Assembly: GCA_000004695.1 (NCBI GenBank) | Contig: CM000150.2 | Coordinates: forward strand, 416,001 to 480,000 | From: Dictyostelium discoideum | Lineage: Eukaryota | Length of the DNA stretch: 64,000 nucleotides | Direction of reading: 5' to 3' | In this document: positions 596-58,183 of the stretch, piece by piece | How the letters are laid out: the number at the start of each line of letters is the position of its first letter | Position numbering within the stretch: position 1 is the stretch's first letter | Notes under the pieces: generated by a model | Database searches by the model: none | The model's input: the letters and a program-made list of their open reading frames with translations, nothing else | Told to the model about the DNA's origin: nothing | Position numbers and translations under genes: made by a program

Positions 596-709
596 TTAAT
601 AAAATATAAAAAAAATTAAAAATAATAATAAAATTATTAAATTTTTTGAAATTAAATTAAAATTATTATTTGAATTATTAAAATTTTCATTTAAATTTTC
701 ATTTAATAA

Positions 710-744
<35 letters not shown>

Positions 745-1778
745 AATTTGAATTTAATGATTTTTTATTAATTGAACATAAAAAATTATTATATTGACAA
801 GTTATTTGATCACCAAAACATGAAACATATTCAGTTTGATTTTTACATTTAACTTTACCAAATGAATCAATTAAACATTTTGTATTATCATCATTTAAAC
901 ATTTAATTGTTGTTGAATTATTTGATTTACAAATAATATCTTCATCTCTTGATTTAATTTTAATACCTTCATCATAATAACTATCTTGATTTGAATTATT
1001 ATTATTTAATTTAATTGATTCACAAATAAATGATGAATAAGTTTTTAAATTTGGTAAACAAGCATATTTTGATTTTAAATAAAAATTAAAAGTGCTCATT
1101 GGATATTCTTCATATTTTTCTAAACTATGTTCAACACCATGTTCACATGAAATTATAATTTTTGATTTTCTATCTTGACTTAAAAAAGTTAAAATAATTT
1201 CATTTTGTTTTAATTCAAATGGTAATAATTGATTAATTAATCCAGTTTTAAATATCTCACCAGTACTAATTGTTTGACATGATTGAGTTTCATTATCATT
1301 TAATATTGAATTACAAATTTCATTTTTTGAACAAATTGAAAAATAATACTATTGTTTTTTTTTTTAATTTAACTATTAATAAAAATAATTTGTTTTTTGA
1401 TAATATTAAAAATTTTAAAATAGTTACATTAAATAAAAATGATCTATTTTCAGTATAATTTAAAGAAACACCTTTTAATGAAGATAAATCATAATAATAA
1501 TTTGAATCATTAAATATACATTTATTATACATTTCAATTATTAATTTATTACTATTTAAATCATTTGTTAATGATAATGATGATGGTGATACTGATGGTG
1601 ATACTGATGGTGATACTGATGATGATGATAATGAAGATGAAGGTTGAATATTTGATGTTTGAAAAAATGGATCACCTATATAATCATAAAAATAATAGCT
1701 TAAGGGTTCATTTGGTTCTTCTCCAGAAATTAAAATTAAAATTAAAAAAAAAAATAATAAAATTGTTTTTAAAAACAT
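596..1778 (-). CDS. Secreted Cys-rich protein, 2 exons (exon1 1428..1778, intron 1349..1427, exon2 596..1348; about 368 aa). It has a signal peptide, a (SVSP)n Ser/Pro-rich stretch, Cys-rich modules, a poly-Asn run and a hydrophobic C-terminus (possible GPI signal).
   Basis: ATG at 1778 followed by a hydrophobic leader (MFLKTILLFFFLILILISG). Donor AAT|GTAACT at 1428/1427 and acceptor CAATAG|TAT at 1349/1348 join the two frames in phase 0. Exon 2 contains '...SCEHGVEHSLEKYEEYPMSTFNFYLKSKYACLP...', homologous to '...KTIYACPLP...' in the 4108-5374 gene. The C-terminus 'LIILLLFLIFFIFY' is hydrophobic. Confidence 0.6.
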
Positions 1779-3659
1779 TTTTATAATTTTTTTATTTTTT
1801 TTTATTTTTAATAATATAAAAAAAAAAATATAAATAAATGAATATTTAAATAATTATTTTTAAACTTTTTTTTTTTTTTTTTTTTATTTTTAAAATTAAA
1901 ATTTATATTATTAATAATAATAATAATTAATATAAATTTTATTTTTAATCATTTTTACAATTGTTCAATTAATTTATTTATTTTTTTTACTTTTGGTTAT
2001 TTTTAAAATTAATAATAAAAAAAATAATTATTTTATTGTGTTGCTAATGTAAAAATCAAAAAAATCAAAATTAACAAAATTCACTAACCCATTTCATTTT
2101 TTTGTCCACCCACAATAAATATAAAAACAAAAAATGAAAATTAATTTTGAAAATTATTGTTATTCCCCAATTAGAAATTTTTAAAAAAATATTAATTTTG
2201 AAAATTTAGATTTATTTAATTATCTTTTATTTCATGAATGTATCAGTGTGTGTGTGGTTGTTTACACATAAAAATAAAATTTGAATTTGATTATTACAAT
2301 TTTAATTTTTAAAATAAATTCCAAAATTAATACTATTTTTTTTACTATTCATAACTACAATTTTTTATTTATATATAAAACATATTTAAATTTTATTATA
2401 AAAATGCCAATTTTTAACTTTTTTTTATATTCTTTGTTTTTATTTTTTTTTTTTTTACCATTCATATAAAACAGATAATAGATAAGTCATATATGGAGAT
2501 TTGATCAATAGATTTTTTTTAAAAGTAATTTGAATAATTAGAACTATTTTTAACCTTAACCTAAAACTTTTTTTAATACTGGCAAACTTTTTTATTTTTT
2601 ATTTTTTTTTTTCTGGCCCGAGGAATAAGAAAGATAAAATGTAAAAATGAAAAAAAAAATTGAATAAATATTAAAGTTTTAAGGTGTTCCCAAACAACTT
2701 GAGTCTTACCTGTGGTTAATCTGTTTTTTTCCCTACAACTTTTTTAAATTGGGGTCATTTTGCCTCCAAAAATATTATTATACTTTTGTTTCTCCTCTTC
2801 TTTTTTTATTTTTTTATAAATATAATTTTTTTTTTTTTTTAAAGTTTAGTGATTTTTAAGTTTAACCCATTTATTTTATATATATAAACTAACAACATAA
2901 CAAACAACAAAAATTAAACTTTTATTAATGAAAAATGGATGAGGGCGAAAATTAGTTTTCAGATTGAGAAGAAGAAATTTAAGACATTAGTTTTCTCAAG
3001 GGATAAAGAACAAATATTCAAACAAGAGGTAGTAAATAACTATTTTAATTTTGATTTAAAAAACAACACCCAATCATTGATTTCACAAATTCAATTGATG
3101 AGGATATATTTTCTTATGATTATGATCATGTATCTATCCAATTTTTACCTTCAAAATCAAATGAAATTTTTGATTTAAGAGTTTGGAAAATTGTATTAAA
3201 GTTAGTGCTAATAACACCTTTTTTTTTTTTTTTGAAATTTTTTGATTAATCAAGCTTTTGAATTGGTAACATTCAAATCACATTTATGAAAAATATGTAA
3301 TTTAATTGAGGAATTCAAGGAGAATCTAATGAAATTTCATTATCAAAATATAAAAATGGTAAAATTAATTTTTTCCAATTTTAACTTTTTAAAAAAAACT
3401 ATATAAAAATATCAAATAATAATAATTATAAATAAATAAACAAATAGATTCAATAAATAAATAATTACAAAGAGGTCTCTTCAATGGTACACCACCCTTT
3501 CTAACAGTAGTCAAGTTGATCAGAGAAAGAACAACCATAATCATTAGTAGTAAATAATAAATTGAAATCATTATTATTAGTTAATAATAAAACAATTAAA
3601 AATAATATATAATAATAATTTATAAAATCACTTCAAATAAAATCACGACCTAACAGGCT

Positions 3660-3990
3660 GACTACAATGTTTTTTTTTTTAAAAAAAAAAATTTACCAAA
3701 CCGATTTCAAAGGTTTTTTAAAAAAAATGGACCAAATGGGCAATTATAAGGTTTTTTTTTTTTTTTTAAAAAAAAAAATATATATACCATATTGATCTCA
3801 TAACTACATGGGCTTATGAAAAGGTTTTTTTTTAAAAAAAAAAATAAAATATAAAATATAAAAAATAAAAAAAATATTAAATAAATAAATTAAACCTCAA
3901 TAATTTATTAAAATATTATAATATTGAGAAGATAATTAACCATAAAACAATTATTTTTTAAAAAAAAAAAAAAAAAAAAAATACAATTAT
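3660..3990. repeat. Array of four to five T(9-16)A(8-11) perfect palindromic blocks separated by 25-45 nt unique G/C-containing spacers
   Basis: Direct reading shows ggT11A11 at about 3664, ggT16A11 at about 3753, ggT9A10 at about 3824 and T6A23 at about 3958, each preceded by a short non-AT-rich segment (e.g. 'atcacgacctaacaggctgactacaatg', 'tggaccaaatgggcaattataagg', 'catgggcttatgaaaagg'). Confidence 0.5.
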
Positions 3991-4107
3991 ATACCAAGGA
4001 AAAAAAAAAAAAAAAAAAAAGTAAAATAAAATAATATAAAATAAAAATTAGTCTATTTTCTTTCCAAACAAATATTTCTATTGTGTTTATTATTAATTTT
4101 TTTATTT

Positions 4108-5374
4108 TTATAAAATTAAAAATAATAATATTAAAGTTAAATAAATAAAAATATTGAATGAAAAAATTAAAGTTGAAGAAGAATTAATTTGTCTTTGTTG
4201 TTGTTGTTGTTGATTTTCTTGAATAATTAATTCATCACTACCAAAAGTATTTGAATTAATTACTAAATCATTAACATTTAAACCTGAATATAATTTAGTA
4301 TTAATTTTACAAGTGAAATATGAAGTTTTACAAACAATATGATTACCACTACAAGAGATAAAAGAATTTGGTGTTGTGCATGTGATAACTCCATTTGGTT
4401 GATCAGTTCCACATGTTGAACCTTCTTCTGTTATACAATTAGTTTTTCCATTACCAGTACAAACAATTAATTCTGTACTATTTATAAATAAACCATTTTC
4501 ATTTGATTCACAATAAATTGGTGAATTATTTGGTGTTGAAGTTGGTGTTGAAGTTGGTGTTGAAGTTGGTGTTGAAGTTGGTGATTGAGTTGGTGATTGA
4601 GTTGGTGATTGAGTTGGTGATTGAGTTGGTGATTGAGTTGGTGATGGAGTTGGTGATTGAGTTGATGTTTGAGTTGGTGATGGAGTTGGTTTTGGTAATG
4701 GACATGCATATATTGTTTTAATATAAATATCATAAACACACATTGGACTTTCAGTTTGTTTTTCAATTGTAAATTCATATTCTGGACTACATTTATAATA
4801 ATAATTTGAACTTCTATTATTACCATTTGGACAAATTACATTTGGACCACTTTGTGTACCTGAAGCATTATAACTGATTTTAAGGCTATATTCAGATAAT
4901 GGATTGAGTGAAAATTGACCTTTTCCAAAATTACCAATTTCAAAAAAACCTCTTTCAACATGTTGACATGATTGAATATTATCTCCAATACTTGAACAAC
5001 CATTATTTACTGAACAAACTGCAAATGAATACTTTTTTTTTTTTTTTTTTTTTAATTTTTTTTTTTTTAATTTTTTTTTTTTTAATTTTTTTTTTTTTTT
5101 AATTATTAAAAAAATAAATAAATAAATAAAAAAAAGTATAAAAATAAAATTGGTTAAAAAATTTTTTAATATAAAAAAAAAAAAAAAAATAAAAATTAAA
5201 AAATATAATAATATTTACATCAGTATAATGATTTACTCGATACAAGAATGTAGAATTCTTTATTAAAGACATATCAATTATATGAGTTGAATTTTGAAAA
5301 ATACATGTTTCTAATGATGATTTAACTACACTAAGAAATGTAGATAAAATAAATAATAAAATATATTTATTCAT
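4108..5374 (-). CDS. Paralog of the 596-1778 gene: secreted Cys-rich protein, 2 exons (exon1 5219..5374, intron 5032..5218, exon2 4108..5031; about 359 aa). It has (SPTQ)n/(TSTP)n spacer repeats and a hydrophobic C-terminus.
   Basis: ATG at 5374 with signal peptide MNKYILLFILSTFLSVVKS. Donor GAT|GTAAAT at 5219/5218 and acceptor AAAG|TATTCA at 5032/5031 are both phase 0. Exon 2 reads '...YSFAVCSVNNGCSSIGDNIQSCQHVERGFFEIGNFGKGQFSLNPLSEY...ESPMCVYDIYIKTIYACPLPKPTPSPTQ...'. The intron contains (T13AA)4. The C-terminal tail 'LIFSFNIFIYLTLILLFLIL' is hydrophobic. Confidence 0.6.
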
Positions 5375-10082: not shown

Positions 10083-10113
<31 letters not shown>

Positions 10114-11479
10114 AACGGACATGCATTTTTGGATGATGCATAGATTGTTTGATTGCAAATGGAGTTATTAACAGTGGTTAAGACGGTGAATTCAGTATTG
10201 GAGCATCTAATATATACCTTTATCTCTGGTTTGGTTGTACAAATGGTAGGGGTAGATGATGAATTAAATGAAATTAAAATATTGTTTGATGTGTTACTAC
10301 TTGCAATAAATGGTACTTTGGATACTGTAGGTTTATCAAGGAATGGAATGGTTGTTTTTCCAAGTCCTAAAATAAGACAACCATAATACTTTCCACTTAA
10401 TCTTGAGAATTTATTACATACATCAACAGTACCACCGAAATTGAAAAGGAATCTATTGGGTTCTAGAGCTGACGAATATGGATTTGATGATGATGTTCTT
10501 TAATAATTTTTTTTTTTTATCAGTAAAATAAAATCTATAAAAGAAAATAATAATAATAATAATAATAAAATACATACAATTTCAATGATCTTAAATCATA
10601 TTGATTGCCACCAAATAAGTATTTGTTTTCAATTGGACAGGCAAATTTAGTGGAGATTTGTTGGATACCTTGTACCATTGACTGAAACACGTTATTGAAT
10701 TGGACCCTCACCAGCTGTAGCAGTACATAAAGTTGATGTTTCACAAAGACTAAAATAAAAAATGTTGCTACCATTTGTTGTAGTATATTGTGATGGTCCT
10801 AAAACACTATTGAGATTAATTAATTAATTTAATTTTTTAAAAATATAAAATAAATAGGTTAGATAATAAAATAATGATAAATTAAAATAAAAATAAAATA
10901 AAAGAATACATACTTTGAAGTTGGTGATAAATCGAAAAATCTATTTTTAGAATCTTGGAAAACACATCTATTTTTAGAATCTTTAGTATGTGGACTATCC
11001 ACTCTAGCATTTTGAATGAAATCATAGTGGTTTGTATCAGAGTATGTATAAACATAATTGTAAAGACTATAAAATGGAATGGTTTTTGGATTTCCAACTT
11101 CTACAGTTAATAATGATTGAATAGAATTAACTTGGTCTTCCAATACACCAATCGAAGCACGAGAGGATATATCGGTTGTCTTTGATTGAGCAGAGGTTGA
11201 ATTTGATTCGAGTGATGATGTTTTTGGTGCAATGAATTGGAAATTACTTTCAAAGAAACACAAATTATTTGAATTTAATGATTGATAAATCATTGGTTTT
11301 TTATCATTATTGGCTGCATTTAATAACTCTATGAAATATGTTTTGAAATCATAAACATTTTCTTTATTACTTAACACATCAATTAAAAATGATACACTTG
11401 ATTCTTTAAAACCTTCTAATTCATATAAATCATAAAAGAATGATGTTATTGAAGAGCTGTAATATGATTGAACATTCAA
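10062..11479 (-). CDS. Ill-defined minus-strand gene or gene remnant: a long open frame at 10859-11479 with no ATG, and an open terminal-exon-like frame at about 10062-10498 ending in a hydrophobic tail (…ACPFYLFIYLFIYLFIIL*). The structure is not resolved.
   Basis: A 206-codon stop-free frame (10859-11479) has Dictyostelium-like composition, ends at a GTATGT donor (10913) and begins just after an in-frame TAA with only a TTG start. A second stop-free frame of about 145 codons (about 10062-10498) reads '...CNKFSRLSGKYYGCLILGLGKTTIPFLDKPTVSKVPFIASS...ICTTKPEIKVYIRCSNTEFTVLTTVNNSICNQ...'. I could not connect these in frame with canonical splice sites. Confidence 0.3.
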
Positions 11480-11852: not shown

Positions 11853-13187
11853 ATGAAATATTTGGTTACTATATTTTTATTATTTATTTTGTTCTCAATA
11901 ATTAAATGTCAACCTCCAAGATGTTTATACAGTGATATTTATGCAAAATCACCACACCCAAACTTAAAACCCTCTGTAAATTATGTTAATTGGTGGATTT
12001 ATGAACATTTTAATGATGCTGGTTATGGTGGTTCATCTTTTTATACAGATAGTAATTTAAAGGACCTAAATGAAAAAATTTTTGAATTGAGCGATTATAA
12101 TATGAGAGATCAAAACCAGGTATCTCCAATTACTCAAACATTCAGTCAAGTGAATGATCTTCTATTTTCAAGTATTTCTTACAATAATGCTTTTGATGAC
12201 GATTACTCAAAAGGAAGTGCACATGAAAAAGGATTTTTTATTTGGAACGAACAAGGTGGTATTCATGTTATTCATAGTATTCCAAAAACACCTCAAAAAA
12301 TGAATGATTTCTTTTTACATACCTCCAAAGATAATTATTTACAACATTCAATTTGTATTACATTGTCACAAGCTGAATTAGATATTATTCCTAAATATTT
12401 GATTTATACCAACCCTGCAATTGCAACAATAAATTCTAAAAAGATTACTGGTTCAATCATAAGTTCTTTAACAGAAGAAAGTATAACAGGTGTTAATAAT
12501 GTTAACAAAAACGATACATTTGATACAGTAACAGATATTGAAATTGGAGATACGGAACAGTTTACAGAAATCGATACAATTATTCAGGATAATTTTATTG
12601 TAGGTCCAACTCTCCCAAGAATTATTAAAATTCTACAATGGGCTAAATTGGTATGTATAATTATTTTTATTATTGTTTATTTTATAGTTGTAAATTATAC
12701 TCACTCAAATTATACCACTTTTTGTATTTCCCAGGCTAATCATGTCGCTGGAAATATTGATTTTTCATCAGATCCAAATTTTCCAAGCTATCATTATTAT
12801 AGAGCAAAGCAACATTCATTTGGTGAATACTTTGTTCAAACTCCAATACCAGAAAAGAAAAATATTATTGCTGGATCCTCTCAGTATAACTTGGCAAGAA
12901 TGAATAACATTGAAATTTTATGGCAATACATCGGTAAATATTACGGTAGTATTTCAAAATGGATGTCTCAAACAATGACTACAAATAAAGGATTTGCTAA
13001 TAATGTAGTTACTGGTACAACTTTCTCATTAACATTTAGGCTCAATTATCCATTCCTAAATAACCATCAACAAAGAAGTGCCTCAAAAGATCATTCAAAG
13101 TTCATGTATGGTACCAGTAACAATGGTCAACAAAAAATCTTTTGTATAGGTGGTTTAAATTGGCAAAGAGCTCAAGGTAGGATAAAA

Positions 13188-13266
<79 letters not shown>

Positions 13267-14458
13267 TATATATTATATATTATATATTATATTATTTATT
13301 ATTTATTATTACTAATTAATCGTTAATTTGAATATTTTTATTGATACAATACACTTCATAATTAGAATCAAGAGGAGGGGCAGCTTTTTGCATGAATGGT
13401 ATTGGTTATTTAGTTGATTATATGGAAAGACATGTATCATGGACAAGAAAAGGAATAGCCCAAAATCAAGTAAAATCTGGTGTCCCACAATCAACAGTAG
13501 GAACTGAAATAGACTTTTCTTGGATAAAGGATCAATTGAACATCCAAAATCTAGATATTCCCATGGGATTCGAAATTTTAATACCAACAACACAAAATCC
13601 ACTTCCAAAAAGAGTTATTGAACCAGCACAATCAAATTATAAAACCAAAAATGCTCCACTCCTTGTTGAACCTGTGCAGACACCATTAGGTGCATTAGTA
13701 GGTTATAAAACTGAGGCAATTTCAATTGATGTTTTCCCAAGTGTAAAAGATAAAGTACATATATGTCTACAATCATCCCAATGTCCGTATGAATTATCAG
13801 CTAAATCTAATATCATTTCAAATATTAATCTTATTGTTACTCCTTATCAATTAAACTCAGAATCAGAACCTGTTATGACAATTTCCTCCAATGCAAACCC
13901 TGCTATTTCTGTTTCACAAGTATTGAAGAATAATTATTTCTCTTCTATGGCCACTGAAAAAATAATTCAACTAAATGGTAATAATTTTGGAGTTTATTTA
14001 CAAAAGACTCAACAAACTCTAGGTGATTTTAAATTTAAATTTCCACAATCAAGTATCAATACCCCTTGTACTATTTCACCAATAGGTAGTAATATTATTT
14101 CAATTATGTTTCATGAAACTTGTGTTGATCAACTTATATTTTGCTTATTTAGTCATTTCCACATGTATTCAATTAATAATATACCAGTGTTTATGGTAGA
14201 TGACCAAGCTTCATTTTATAATGATGTTACCCAAATTCTTGTAAGATAATATTCAGTTACAAATATAAAATGCACAAAACTTTTTGATCATTACATTCTA
14301 ATACCATTATTAATTTTTTTAAATAGAATGAATTCTTTCCAAACATTCCAGATATCAGTAGATGTGTTGAACAACCACCTTCGCCTGGAACTGCAATGAC
14401 TGATAACGATGAAATTGATGAATTGATGGGATCTCAGGCCATGACTGATGAAATTTAA
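11853..14458 (+). CDS. Deoxyribonuclease II (DNase II) family protein with a long C-terminal extension. Four exons: 11853..12650, 12735..13176, 13375..14240, 14327..14458.
   Basis: N-terminal signal peptide (MKYLVTIFLLFILFSIIKC). The first DNase II catalytic motif 'SAHEKGFFIWNEQGGIHVIHSIPKTP' corresponds to human '[25 protein letters not shown]'. The second motif 'SASKDHSKFMYG...GGLNWQRAQG|GAAFC' corresponds to human 'EDHSKW...QRGGGTLC'. Splice sites: GTATGT(12651)..CAG(12734), phase 0, an in-frame 84-nt intron. GTAGG(13177)..AG(13374), phase 1, through an (ATT)n tract. GTAAGA(14241)..AATAG(14326), phase 0. The last exon ends in an acidic tail 'DNDEIDELMGSQAMTDEI*'. Confidence 0.7.
13186..13262. 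repeat. (ATT)n microsatellite of about 25 units inside intron 2 of the DNase II-like gene. It produces the spurious poly-Tyr tail of the six-frame ORF 11853..13319.
   Basis: Direct reading. Confidence 0.9.
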
Positions 14459-14689: not shown

Positions 14690-15790
14690 ATTCTTTTTCA
14701 ATACAAACTTTAACTTTGTATTGGATTTGATGAAGGATGATCCAGATTTATCATTATAACAAATAAGGGTATTATTATATGCATAGTTAAATTCTACTTC
14801 TCCTGGATAACAGGCAAGTTTATTTGATGCAGAGTTGAATTCTGTGATAATTGTTTGATTGGTAATTACAATTGGCTCTACTTCGGATGGTGGAACTTCA
14901 AAGCATGCATGAATAATCTGAAGCTTTTACCAATGAATTCTTTGAGCATGATGAATATTTATTGTAACTATAGCATTCTACATTATTAATGAATGAATGT
15001 TCAGGTTCACCGCCATCACTAACACATTCAACAATGTTTGATTGGGTTTCGCTATTTGAACAGAAAATAGTAGAATTATGATTGTATGAATATTCATTGA
15101 ATCCATCTTTACAATAGATTGGACTATTTTGACCATAGAATATCATTGATTTTTCATTGGCATTGTATTCACATTTTAATGAACTTGAAACTTTTGAAAC
15201 TGTTGAAATAGAGAATTTATAGTCAATGCAGATTTTGAACGAACACCACAATTAATTTCAGTTACAAAGTTGGTTGTATTACATTTAATACCATTATTAT
15301 TAGCATCAATTTGACAAGTGATTGATTTGTTGAAATTGAAACTAAAATTATTATTATCAATACATGTTACAGTTTCATTGAATTGATTATCAATTGTAAA
15401 GATACGATCATTATGATTAATTGAGAAAAATACTGCAGAGTAAGGTGTTGAAGCAATTGATAAAAGATTGGATGTTGGTACTGGTGCTGTTGATGATGAT
15501 AATAGGTTTCCACCCATTGATGATTTTGTTACCACCAATGCTAAAGCTATAGTTGATACACGTTTAATACCATTCTTTGCAACCTGAGTTACAACTCTTC
15601 TTGTTACCTCTGCGAACCCAAATTGTAATGATTTCTCTAATGCTCCTGAAAATGATGCTGTAGATGCTAATATTGAACCAGATTGAGCTGCTGTTGCAGA
15701 TGTTGCAGATGTTGCAAATGCTATTTGTGTAAGTGGTAAAGCAGTTGATGCTAATAATGCTGCTGCAACCAAAGATTAAGATTTGTTCAT
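14690..15790 (-). pseudogene. Decayed member of the secreted Cys-rich family seen at 596-1778 and 4108-5374
   Basis: On the minus strand, ATG(15790-15788) AAC AAA TCT TAA gives 'MNKS*', immediately followed in frame by 'SLVAAALLASTALPLTQIAFA' (signal-peptide-like). So a nonsense codon sits at codon 5. Coding-like sequence then continues through three different frames (15772-15176, 15251-14898 and about 14890-14690) with no GT..AG introns to reconcile them. Segment 2 '...GQNSPIYCKDGFNEYSYNHNSTIFCSNSE...' is clearly homologous to '...NSPIYCESNENGLFINSTELIVCTGNG...' of the 4108-5374 gene. Confidence 0.6.
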
Positions 15791-35991: not shown

Positions 35992-36254
35992 TTAATTGAC
36001 TAATTCATTTACAATCTGAGATTGAGAAGCTAATGTTGCTAAAGATTCGAGTTTAAAAAAGTCAAATGAGGTCGCTTTTAATTTTTCAATTGAAGATTGA
36101 TGTGGTGAAGAAATTGGAGAAGACATTGGTGATGTATTTGATTGGTTATTATTATGATTTTTAAAATTTGATAAGATTTGTTTGTTATTTTTTAATTTTG
36201 GTAACATGTCGTCATCACTACTATTATCACTATTATATGATAAAGTATTGTTAC

Positions 36255-36303
<49 letters not shown>

Positions 36304-36765
36304 GTTATTGTTATTATTATTGTTATTATTATTATTATTTAATTTATTTTTAATTGGTTGATAATAAAATTCACCATTACTTCTAACTTTTTTCATTACT
36401 GGTTCATTACAACCATTATCTTCAACTTTTATATTATCATTATCGTTATTATTATTATTATTATTATTTTCACTATCTATTATATTATTTATACTGAAAG
36501 CACTATTTGTTGAACTTGATGGTGATGGTCTTGATGGTGTTGATACAATTGTAGATTTAAAAGTTTTAATTGATGGTGATGGAGATGGTTGTCTAATACT
36601 ATTATTACAAGATGGTGATGATAATGTTGATGATGGTAGCGTTAATGATGTTGGTGGTGTTAATGGTGGTGATGATGGAATTGGTGATGATGTTGGACTA
36701 GTTAATCCTGTAACAACTGGTTTATGTGGTAATGGTCTAAATATATTTGGTGGTGTATTATTTGA

Positions 36766-36839
<74 letters not shown>

Positions 36840-37173
36840 CTTCACAACCTTCAAATGATGGTGATGATGTATTTGAATCAATAATACTACTTAATGGTGA
36901 TAAATTATGTGATTTATTGTTATTATTACTATTACTATTATTATTATTCATTTGATACATATTATTATTATTATTATTATTGATATTATTATTATTATTG
37001 TTGTTATTGTTATAATGATTATTATTATTATTATTATTCATTTGATTATAATGATTATTATAATGATTATGATTATTATTGTTATTATTATTTTGGTTAT
37101 TATGATTATTATTATAATTATTATTAATATTATTATTATTATTATTATAATTGTTATTATAATTATTATTCAT

Positions 37174-37235
<62 letters not shown>

Positions 37236-38102
37236 GATATTGTAATTGTTGATTAAAAGTATTTGCAGAAGAGGAATTTAAACTTGAAACATTTGATTGA
37301 TTTAGAGGTGGTAAAATTGAACCACCTTTACCAGTTAATTGAAGGTAACGAGTTTTACATTCTAAAGCGGTTCTAAGAGTATTTGTATGTTTTAATTTTG
37401 CTAAATATTCAGATACTTCTAACCAAGATAAATTTTCACCCATTTCATCAACTTTTTTAACCAAAACTTCATCTTCCTTTGGTACCCATGCGACTTCTCT
37501 TGATTGAAGTGATTTCAAATATTGATAACGACATTGAATATCAGTACGTTTACAAATTCTTTTAGCGATTTTTTTCCAACTTGAACCATGTTGATTAACC
37601 AATCTCAATAATAATTCTTCTTCATCTTCATCCCATGGTCCTTTTCTAATATCTGGTGATAAAACACGTTTCCAATGTTGAGCACATTGTGCTCCTGTTT
37701 TTTGTCCTCCCATCTCTGCTGATATTCTTTTCCATTTCTTTTCACCATAAATACTAACTAATTGAAAAAGTTTTTGATCTTCTTCTTCTGTCCATTTATT
37801 TGGTGATCTTCTAATACCATTTTGAATTTGACCTCTTCCTCTCTTTTTTTTTAAAAAAAAAAAATAAAAAAATAAAAAATAAAAAAATAAAAAAAATTAA
37901 TAAATGTTGGAAAATTTTATTTTCAAAAAAAATATATACTTACTTTTGATGGTGATGGAACATCATCTTTTGGTGATAAGTCATATTCATTATCTGAAAA
38001 TTCATCATCCATTAATGAAGGATCATTATAGATTCTATCAGAATTAAATTGTGGAGATATATTATATTTTGAAATATTATTCATTATCAAAGACTCTGTC
38101 AT
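35992..38102 (-). CDS. Myb-domain transcription-factor-like protein with three tandem Myb/SANT repeats followed by poly-Gln/poly-Asn and Ser/Pro/Thr-rich regions. Two exons: 37944..38102 and 35992..37842.
   Basis: Exon 1 is ATG(38102)..'MTESLIMNNISKYNISPQFNSDRIYNDPSLMDDEFSDNEYDLSPKDDVPSPSK', ending at donor GTAAGT (37943). Acceptor AAAAAG| at 37843; exon 2 starts in phase 0 with 'RGRGQIQNGIRRSPNKWTEEEDQKLFQLVSIYGEKKWKRISAEMGGQKTGAQCAQHWKRVLSPDIRKGPWDEDEEELLLRLVNQHGSSWKKIAKRICKRTDIQCRYQYLKSL...AWVPKEDEVLVKKVDEMGENLSWLEVSEYLAKLKHTNTLRTALECKTRYLQL'. These are canonical W-x(19)-W-x(19)-W style Myb repeats. Confidence 0.75.

Positions 38103-48991: not shown

Positions 48992-58183
<9,192 letters not shown>

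Follow-up and report, generated by a model that had tools for sequence, protein, structure and literature searches.

Near the start of a 64,000-nucleotide stretch of the Dictyostelium discoideum genome (GenBank assembly GCA_000004695.1, contig CM000150.2, positions 416,001 to 480,000 of the forward strand; hereafter the window, whose own numbering is used throughout) lie two minus-strand genes, termed here gene A and gene B, each encoding a protein with two cysteine-rich blocks. Judged by family profiles and a structural model, the first block of both proteins is assigned to the MRH/CIMR lectin domains (Pfam PF00878), which have the P-type lectin fold. We consider it reasonably probable that A and B are ancient paralogs whose products are secreted MRH lectins of the cell surface, tail-less or of the glycosylphosphatidylinositol (GPI) type, that bind mannose-type glycans. 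The MRH label as such is already known from the automated annotation of orthologs; the new element is the architecture, in which a single MRH domain is set on a stalk and combined with a lineage-specific cysteine module and a GPI-type tail, in a family that is fast-evolving and variable in copy number. A literature search on genes A and B found no paper, and the only Dictyostelium MRH gene that we found discussed was DDB_G0283243.

The organism has been described as being without detectable mannose-6-phosphate (M6P) receptors (PMC2114169). The lysosomal enzymes of D. discoideum bear Man-6-P-methyl diester or Man-6-sulfate, and it is thought to have lectin-like surface receptors, so far unidentified (PMC5758549). 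If our reading is true, the MRH fold would act at the cell surface as a lectin for recognition, in the form of one domain carried by a mucin-like stalk and held by a GPI-type anchor. The A/B family offers knockout-ready candidates both for the question of the missing M6P receptor and for that of the surface lectin receptor. A conserved sugar-contact tetrad within fast-changing loops, together with a variable copy number, resembles what is seen in animal immune and recognition lectins.

The first cysteine-rich block and its sugar pocket

Protein homology searches with A and B yielded few homologs, all from Dictyostelium. Two D. firmibasis orthologs carry the UniRef name "MRH domain-containing protein", one of them with a precomputed CIMR match, and the Pfam families CIMR, ATG27 and PRKCSH_1 match some members of the family. 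The profile search that the original prediction had asked for was informative for the family rather than for the lone proteins: a profile built from eight family sequences matched the cation-independent M6P receptor (CI-MPR) among PDB sequences with E=4e-46, covering many of its repeats. The best single repeats were domain 5 (independent E-value 2e-8) and domain 9 (2e-7), aligned over profile positions 4-148, and the same profile reached the MRH domains of glucosidase II beta and erlectin with E of about 2e-3. HMMER, run exhaustively over 1.84 billion representatives, returned 555 relatives, headed by CI-MPR-type proteins with 12-17 repeats. The canonical signature is evident in an alignment of 63 sequences (C..DLS.L..Y....C.....C....CQ...G...L.Y..G..C.....R...I.F.C....E...C.Y.F...T..ACP). 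With this alignment, AlphaFold2 (AF2) gave a model of the gene B domain with 11 strands, a predicted local distance difference test score (pLDDT) of 96.6 and a predicted template modeling score of 0.90, which presents the MRH domain as a flattened beta-barrel. In a Foldseek search of the PDB at E<=0.001 with this model, all 45 of 45 matches were MRH folds (CD-MPR, CI-MPR repeats, OS-9, GIIbeta, GNPTG, XTP3-B and Elapor1), with query-normalized template modeling scores of 0.47-0.73. A model based on a shallow alignment of eight sequences (pLDDT 49) was discarded together with its Foldseek search.

The original prediction took the two proteins for a lineage-specific family. This description holds for the second cysteine-rich block and for the architecture as a whole, but not for the first block, where the domain assigned is pan-eukaryotic. 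The motif Y-A-C-(P)-L-P, named in the original prediction, is indeed common to both proteins. The eight cysteines of the gene B domain (24, 58, 64, 74, 119, 133, 150 and 162) occupy consensus columns; the gene A domain has six, the pair equivalent to C119/C150 of gene B having been lost.

The sugar-contact residues could be placed by alignment of hidden Markov models (HMMs). Relative to bovine CI-MPR domain 3, the Gln, Arg and Tyr of the family align on Q348, R391 and Y421, and the Glu is at most one residue away from E416, the residue numbers of domain 3 being derived from the chain offset in the profile alignment. R391 of CI-MPR is essential, and four residues are essential for carbohydrate binding (PMC7481795). 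Gene B has the complete tetrad (Gln75, Arg125, Glu146, Tyr152), which is complete in 10 of the 13 A/B-type proteins overall and in a Polysphondylium relative. In gene A the tetrad reads Gln142, Arg177, Glu198 and Phe204, with Phe in place of Tyr. With this exchange and the lost disulfide, sugar binding by the gene A product is probably altered or weakened. The loop that matches the phosphate-contacting loop is hypervariable, with insertions and deletions between the A and B types.

Architecture and history of the gene pair

Both genes lie on the minus strand where the original prediction had placed them, and each has an intact open reading frame (ORF) with a single GT..AG phase-0 intron; the spliced translations were checked (Table 1). 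Their paralogy had been staked on pairwise similarity beyond the low-complexity regions, and such similarity is present in two blocks, one with 33% identity over 146 amino acids (BLASTP E=2e-11) and the other with 32% identity over 62 amino acids (E=7e-8). The common two-exon layout likewise stands, with the introns at the same codon: both fall in one alignment column, just 5' of the motif [YF]-x-F-[AS]-[VIL]-C-S, and this phase-0 position is common to nine family genes, namely A, B and seven from three sister species. Orthologs of gene A are P0098, P0099 and P0100, and the intron position is the same in the orthologs on L002, L003 and L004; homologs of gene B are P0001, P0002, P0003, P0135 and P0138, and its ortholog on L003 has the same intron position.

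Two details of the predicted layout needed revision. Exon 1 does encode the signal peptide, but in both genes it also encodes the start of the first cysteine-rich domain, that is, about the first 33 residues of the MRH domain, among them the first of its conserved cysteines. A further stretch of about 60 residues, with the SVSP repeat, is encoded by exon 1 of gene A ahead of the MRH domain. At the DNA level both genes do have spacer repeats, yet only in gene B do they separate the two cysteine blocks, since the SVSP repeat of gene A lies in exon 1 upstream of the first block. The gene B spacer is variable in length among species (the whole protein has 359 amino acids in the window and 407 on L003), and we presume that it forms an O-glycosylated mucin-like stalk. 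The A and B chains contain 7-9 N-glycosylation sequons.

For the second cysteine-rich block, a module of about 80 residues with eight cysteines, no relatives were found in Pfam or among PDB sequences. Its profile (A3), run over the 253 collected proteins, detects only A/B-type proteins of the genus Dictyostelium; neither a giant D. discoideum MRH protein (P0159, see below) nor the Polysphondylium protein was detected. On these searches the module appears to be lineage-restricted, with no known relative. Between gene B and its L003 ortholog it is 98% identical, with an omega (ratio of nonsynonymous to synonymous divergence, dN/dS) of 0.13.

The prediction of secreted proteins with a GPI-like C-terminus agrees with the hydrophobicity heuristics: each chain starts with a hydrophobic signal and has a hydrophobic extreme C-terminus with nothing after it. 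Hydrophobic tails of 12-21 amino acids, followed by 0-1 residue and preceded by an Asn/Ser/Gly-rich stretch, are seen in all full-length members. The tail of gene A has 21 amino acids (mean Kyte-Doolittle value of the last 15 residues 2.89) and that of gene B has 20, in both cases with no residues after it. Heuristically, A and B thus have the layout of GPI proteins, a signal peptide and a tail-less hydrophobic C-terminus after small residues, and the terminal peptide fits a GPI-attachment signal or a tail-less anchor. A transmembrane helix followed by a cytosolic sorting tail, as in CD-MPR and CI-MPR, is not seen, as the hydrophobic segment ends the protein. No HDEL/KDEL signal was found in the A/B proteins, whose C-terminus is the hydrophobic tail. 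The marks of quality-control MRH proteins of the endoplasmic reticulum (ER), a retention signal or partner domains and broad conservation, are also missing, the full architecture being present only in the genus Dictyostelium. In gene A, a perfect (ATT)11 on the plus strand (window 710-743) encodes poly-Asn within residues ~315-346; the run lies between the cysteine module and the tail and varies in length among orthologs.

Among the proteins that have this layout are PsA and contact site A, Dictyostelium GPI glycoproteins in which a globular head sits on an O-glycosylated Pro/Ser/Thr stalk, with a GPI-type signal at the C-terminus. Their head domains are, to our knowledge, unrelated to those of A and B, and none is an MRH lectin; all characterized MRH-domain proteins known to us are sorting receptors of the secretory/endolysosomal system or quality-control lectins. 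Of these, CI-MPR has the same domain of about 145 residues, with the same cysteine framework and Gln/Arg/Glu/Tyr pocket, and its domains 5 and 9 are the closest repeats. However, CI-MPR is a 15-repeat protein with a transmembrane helix and a sorting tail in the cytosol, whereas A and B have one repeat, the lineage-specific 8-Cys module, a tail-less hydrophobic C-terminus and fast evolution. CD-MPR, which like A and B has one MRH domain per chain, gave the top Foldseek match (2rl9, E=2.4e-6), but is a type I membrane protein that has a cytosolic tail and sorts from Golgi to endosome, and sequence identity is only 13-14%. OS-9, XTP3-B/erlectin, glucosidase II beta and GNPTG have the MRH fold and the mannose-contact residues; they differ in being soluble, lumenal and eukaryote-wide, without stalk, cysteine module or membrane anchor.

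Closer at hand, P0239 from Polysphondylium violaceum, P0142 from D. purpureum and P0237 from Acytostelium begin with a signal peptide and then an MRH domain, which in P0239 is followed by a Ser-rich spacer and a Cys-rich region. The A3 cysteine module was not detected in any of the three; moreover, P0142 has two MRH repeats and no anchor, and P0237 has a cytosolic tail after a genuine transmembrane segment. The MRH repeats of P0159 are about 32% identical to that of gene B, and broken remnants of a paralog of P0159 lie 5-10 kb from the A/B pair. This protein differs from A and B in its length of 2456 amino acids, its approximately four MRH repeats, its IPT/TIG repeats and another Cys-rich C-terminus, and it is missed by the A/B cysteine-module profile.

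An expansion by local duplication had been proposed, and for the family this is correct. In D. dimigraforme a single contig carries one A-type gene together with at least four B-type copies that are complete and one that is partial, with another adjacent pair elsewhere; local duplication in the A/B family is active. A recent origin of the A/B pair itself is not indicated, as the two are only about 33% identical and both types occur in sister species. The window, D. firmibasis, D. cf. discoideum and D. dimigraforme all have the A-type gene beside or close to an M20 peptidase gene that is convergent with it (95-96% identical in the sister species), and in each a B-type gene is found upstream. 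Given this conserved arrangement, the split between A and B must be old. In the tandem B-type paralogs of D. dimigraforme the synonymous divergence (dS) is 0.02-0.06 for the 3' cysteine module and 0.30-0.36 for the MRH exon, which suggests either gene conversion of the 3' half, or retention or shuffling of old divergent MRH exons.

Rate of evolution and possible functions

The MRH domains evolve fast, and this result is robust. Between the window and D. cf. discoideum they are 75-76% identical, with omega values of 1.73 (B) and 1.50 (A), compared to 96% identity, omega 0.12 and dS 0.14 for the neighboring M20 gene. The nonsynonymous proportion is 0.121 in the MRH domains and 0.032 in the controls, an approximately 4-fold difference (p=9e-12) at similar synonymous divergence. 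Pooled over both domains, omega is 1.62 (bootstrap P(omega<=1)=0.026), and the Nei-Gojobori site counts do not inflate this value, because the observed ratio of transitions to transversions is 0.45. In the same comparison the contact residues and cysteines are unchanged amid the loop substitutions, and in gene A substitutions also concentrate between the Glu and Tyr positions. Positive selection on the MRH domain is only suggested.

We propose the following scenario. Each chain, consisting of signal peptide, one MRH beta-barrel, a linker (in B the mucin-like Ser/Thr/Pro stalk), the 8-Cys module and the C-terminal hydrophobic peptide, would be translocated, with four (B) or three (A) disulfides forming in the barrel and presumably four in the C-terminal module. 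The C-terminal peptide would then be swapped for a GPI anchor, or kept as a tail-less anchor, so that the protein would come to lie on the outside of the plasma membrane. In gene B the stalk would be O-glycosylated and keep the MRH domain off the membrane. There the domain could bind terminal mannose-type residues via the Gln/Arg/Glu/Tyr pocket, while the fast-changing loops near the pocket may tune the glycan context that is accepted. Candidate ligands are the organism's own N-glycans with Man-6-P-methyl or Man-6-sulfate, or mannans of prey or partner cells. A role in surface recognition or adhesion is proposed, since the lack of a cytosolic tail makes that of an MPR-style sorting receptor unlikely; a role in ER quality control is likewise unlikely, given the stalk and anchor, the rapid evolution and an architecture confined to the genus. 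A bolder version would identify these GPI-type MRH lectins with the long-inferred sugar-specific surface receptors of Dictyostelium, directed at mannose-rich prey or partner cells or at its own Man-6-P-methyl/Man-6-sulfate hydrolases, and with pocket loops under diversifying selection. They would then be an amoebozoan family of innate-recognition lectins based on the M6P-receptor fold, in a species reported to be without M6P receptors. We regard this as speculative and rather doubtful.

Several points weigh against reading A and B as mannose-binding surface lectins. A Pfam search with the two window proteins alone gave zero matches above threshold, so that the MRH identity rests on the family profiles, and since the AF2 alignment included CI-MPR-type sequences, the fold result is not independent of sequence homology. 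The signal-peptide and GPI calls are heuristic, made from hydrophobicity. The tetrad is broken in P0002 (Tyr to Phe) and P0001 (Gln to Val) as well as in gene A (Tyr to Phe), and sugar binding is therefore not universal in the A/B family; residues that would specify phosphate, phosphodiester or neutral mannose are not assignable from sequence. As regards selection, the excess of omega over 1 is borderline (one-sided Fisher p=0.065), and deeper comparisons do not show it again: there the MRH domain has an omega of 0.8-1.2 and M20 one of 0.12. Relaxed constraint may explain the values in place of positive selection. The loop that precedes the essential Arg is enriched in substitutions (14 of 23 positions compared to 53 of 255, p=9e-5), a region that was defined post hoc, after the data had been seen.

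The broken tetrads bear directly on a different use of the fold, in which the MRH domain would be a protein-binding or adhesion scaffold for fast-evolving kin, mating or prey recognition, with sugar binding dispensable. CI-MPR domain 11, which binds IGF2, provides a precedent. Such a scaffold would sit well with an MRH omega of about 1 or higher in all comparisons, with the copy numbers that differ among species, with the changed residues in gene A, P0002 and P0001, and with the homogenized 3' halves and divergent MRH exons (dS 0.02-0.06 vs 0.30-0.36) of D. dimigraforme. We nevertheless think it unlikely, as the tetrad is kept in ten of the thirteen proteins and in the Polysphondylium relative despite heavy substitution in the loops, as if sugar contact were still selected. 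The same rates could alternatively mean that one or both genes are decaying, with intact-looking but functionless ORFs in neutral drift; an omega of about 1-1.7, the loss of one disulfide and the Tyr in gene A and the broken MRH gene remnants nearby would be in line with this. Neutral drift seems very improbable to us given that four species have kept the ORFs, the splice sites, all core cysteines and Gln/Arg/Glu intact and that the gene B cysteine module has an omega of 0.13, while true pseudogene fragments in the window show stops and frameshifts at similar divergence.

Location is the issue in a further alternative, that of intracellular lectins of the secretory/endolysosomal system, acting either as sorting receptors for hydrolases with Man-6-P-methyl or in ER quality control in the manner of OS-9 and glucosidase II beta. 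This is where all characterized MRH proteins are known to act (PMC7481795), and the best single-repeat match, CI-MPR domain 5, prefers phosphodiesters (PMC7481795), the Dictyostelium hydrolases having a Man-6-P methyl diester (PMC5758549). Yet with nothing after the hydrophobic tail there is no room for YxxPhi or dileucine motifs, no HDEL/KDEL signal is present, and a mucin-like stalk with a GPI-type tail is typical of surface proteins. Very fast evolution and a genus-restricted distribution are also unlike conserved quality-control lectins, and P0237, a dictyostelid MRH protein with a true transmembrane segment and tail, is a better candidate for sorting. An intracellular role for A and B therefore appears quite improbable.

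Remnants of a giant MRH gene and other features of the window

A third, decayed copy of the A/B genes had been proposed at 14690-15790. The locus is decayed, but by sequence comparison it is the remnant of a different gene, a giant MRH/IPT-TIG gene. When all reading-frame segments of the window were scanned with the profiles, 14690-15790 gave no MRH signal; similarity to the 8-Cys module is marginal (tblastn E=0.006; HMM E of about 0.01-0.03), and hhalign gives a probability of 3.3% for its Cys-rich end against the A/B module. The scan also revealed an MRH locus at 10083-10499 that had not been listed (A2 HMM E=4e-7). Both remnant regions match one D. discoideum protein of 2456 amino acids, P0159, at about 88-96% identity, and 14690-15790 in particular is 88-95% identical to its C-terminus. 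The 5' remnant is interrupted by a premature TAA and has lost about 65 amino acids of MRH repeat 1; the 3' remnant, which is the proposed third copy, is 92-95% identical to P0159 per frame segment (tblastn/blastp) and has two 1-nt frameshifts. The middle of the giant gene, about 1400 codons, is absent from the window remnants. The pieces are not collinear, the 3' piece lying upstream of the 5' piece for a minus-strand gene, with a DNase II homolog between them. An origin of the 14690-15790 locus as an A/B paralog was rejected on account of the missing MRH signal, the failure of the A3 HMM to detect P0159 and the hhalign result. A short intron as the cause of its frame changes was rejected too, as the frame is open throughout in the intact D. 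discoideum homolog, from which the window is set apart by 1-nt indels. P0159 corresponds to DDB_G0290815 (MRH domain-containing) plus DDB_G0290813 (IPT/TIG domain-containing) of strain AX4; the intact 2456-aa gene is thus represented by two models in AX4 and by a single call in other strains.

Table 1. Positions of the genes, domains and remnants discussed (window coordinates unless a contig is named).
Feature	Position	Strand	Details
Gene A	596-1778	minus	367 aa; intact ORF
Gene A exon 1	1428-1778	minus	117 codons
Gene A intron	1349-1427	minus	79 nt; GT..AG; phase 0
Gene A exon 2	596-1348	minus	stop codon included
Gene A signal peptide (putative)	1722-1778	minus	aa 1-19, MFLKTILLFFFLILILISG; maximum Kyte-Doolittle over 10 residues 3.71; cleavage site inferred via the -3/-1 rule
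Gene A (SVSP)n repeat	1581-1626	minus	Tandem Repeats Finder: 12-nt unit x 3.8 copies, 97% match
Gene A MRH domain (predicted)	1055-1532	minus	aa 83-215, split by intron; HMM matches; 6 Cys
Gene A C-terminal 8-Cys module	758-1045	minus	aa 219-314, Asn-rich insertion; A3 HMM E=4.7e-33
Gene A hydrophobic tail	599-661	minus	aa 347-367, GPI-signal-like; Asn/Ser-rich stretch before
Gene B	4108-5374	minus	359 aa; intact ORF
Gene B exon 1	5219-5374	minus	52 codons
Gene B intron	5032-5218	minus	187 nt; GT..AG; phase 0
Gene B exon 2	4108-5031	minus	stop codon included
Gene B signal peptide (putative)	5318-5374	minus	aa 1-19, MNKYILLFILSTFLSVVKS; N-terminus kept in orthologs
Gene B MRH domain (predicted)	4693-5317	minus	aa 20-165, split by intron; 8 Cys
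Gene B Ser/Pro/Thr/Gln spacer	4518-4694	minus	(SPTQ)n then (TSTP)n; Tandem Repeats Finder: 12-nt unit x 13.8, 92% match
Gene B C-terminal 8-Cys module	4288-4533	minus	aa 219-300; A3 HMM E=5e-36
Gene B hydrophobic tail	4111-4170	minus	aa 340-359, GPI-signal-like; INSSST before
M20 peptidase (acetylornithine-deacetylase-like), 3' end	8-538	plus	convergent with gene A; synteny anchor and dN/dS control
Giant-gene 5' remnant	10095-11476	minus	P0159 aa 264-729; first exon 91% identical to P0159
Giant-gene 3' remnant	14691-15679	minus	P0159 aa 2121-2456
D. dimigraforme B-type paralogs compared	L001 779-2294, 10001-11290, 12336-13615; L004 788-2154

The DNase II homolog between the remnants (Pfam DNase_II E=4e-27) lies on the plus strand at 11853-13319 and perhaps continues into 13392-14249 of the same strand; its long ORF, which has a poly-Tyr run at the end, apparently continues across an intron or insertion. 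Between A and B are a small plus-strand ORF (2939-3178) and a slightly GC-richer patch at about 3390-3570. No similarity was detected between this ORF and the 142-aa gene on the opposite strand at the equivalent place in D. cf. discoideum (L003); if it is a real gene, A and B are not strictly adjacent.

The window as a whole contains about 20% G+C and long intergenic poly-A and poly-T tracts, typical of Dictyostelium. A single plus-strand ORF at 48992-58183 encodes a SNF2-family helicase-like protein of 3063 amino acids that contains long runs of poly-Gln and poly-Asn; the CAA/AAT repeats account for the extreme AT and GC skew in the composition profile at 54-58 kb. A Myb-like protein is encoded by an ORF of 573 amino acids on the minus strand (35992-37713). 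Between 38000 and 46000 the GC skew is sustained and strongly positive (0.24-0.46) at about 15% GC, and this region contains no ORF of 200 amino acids or more.

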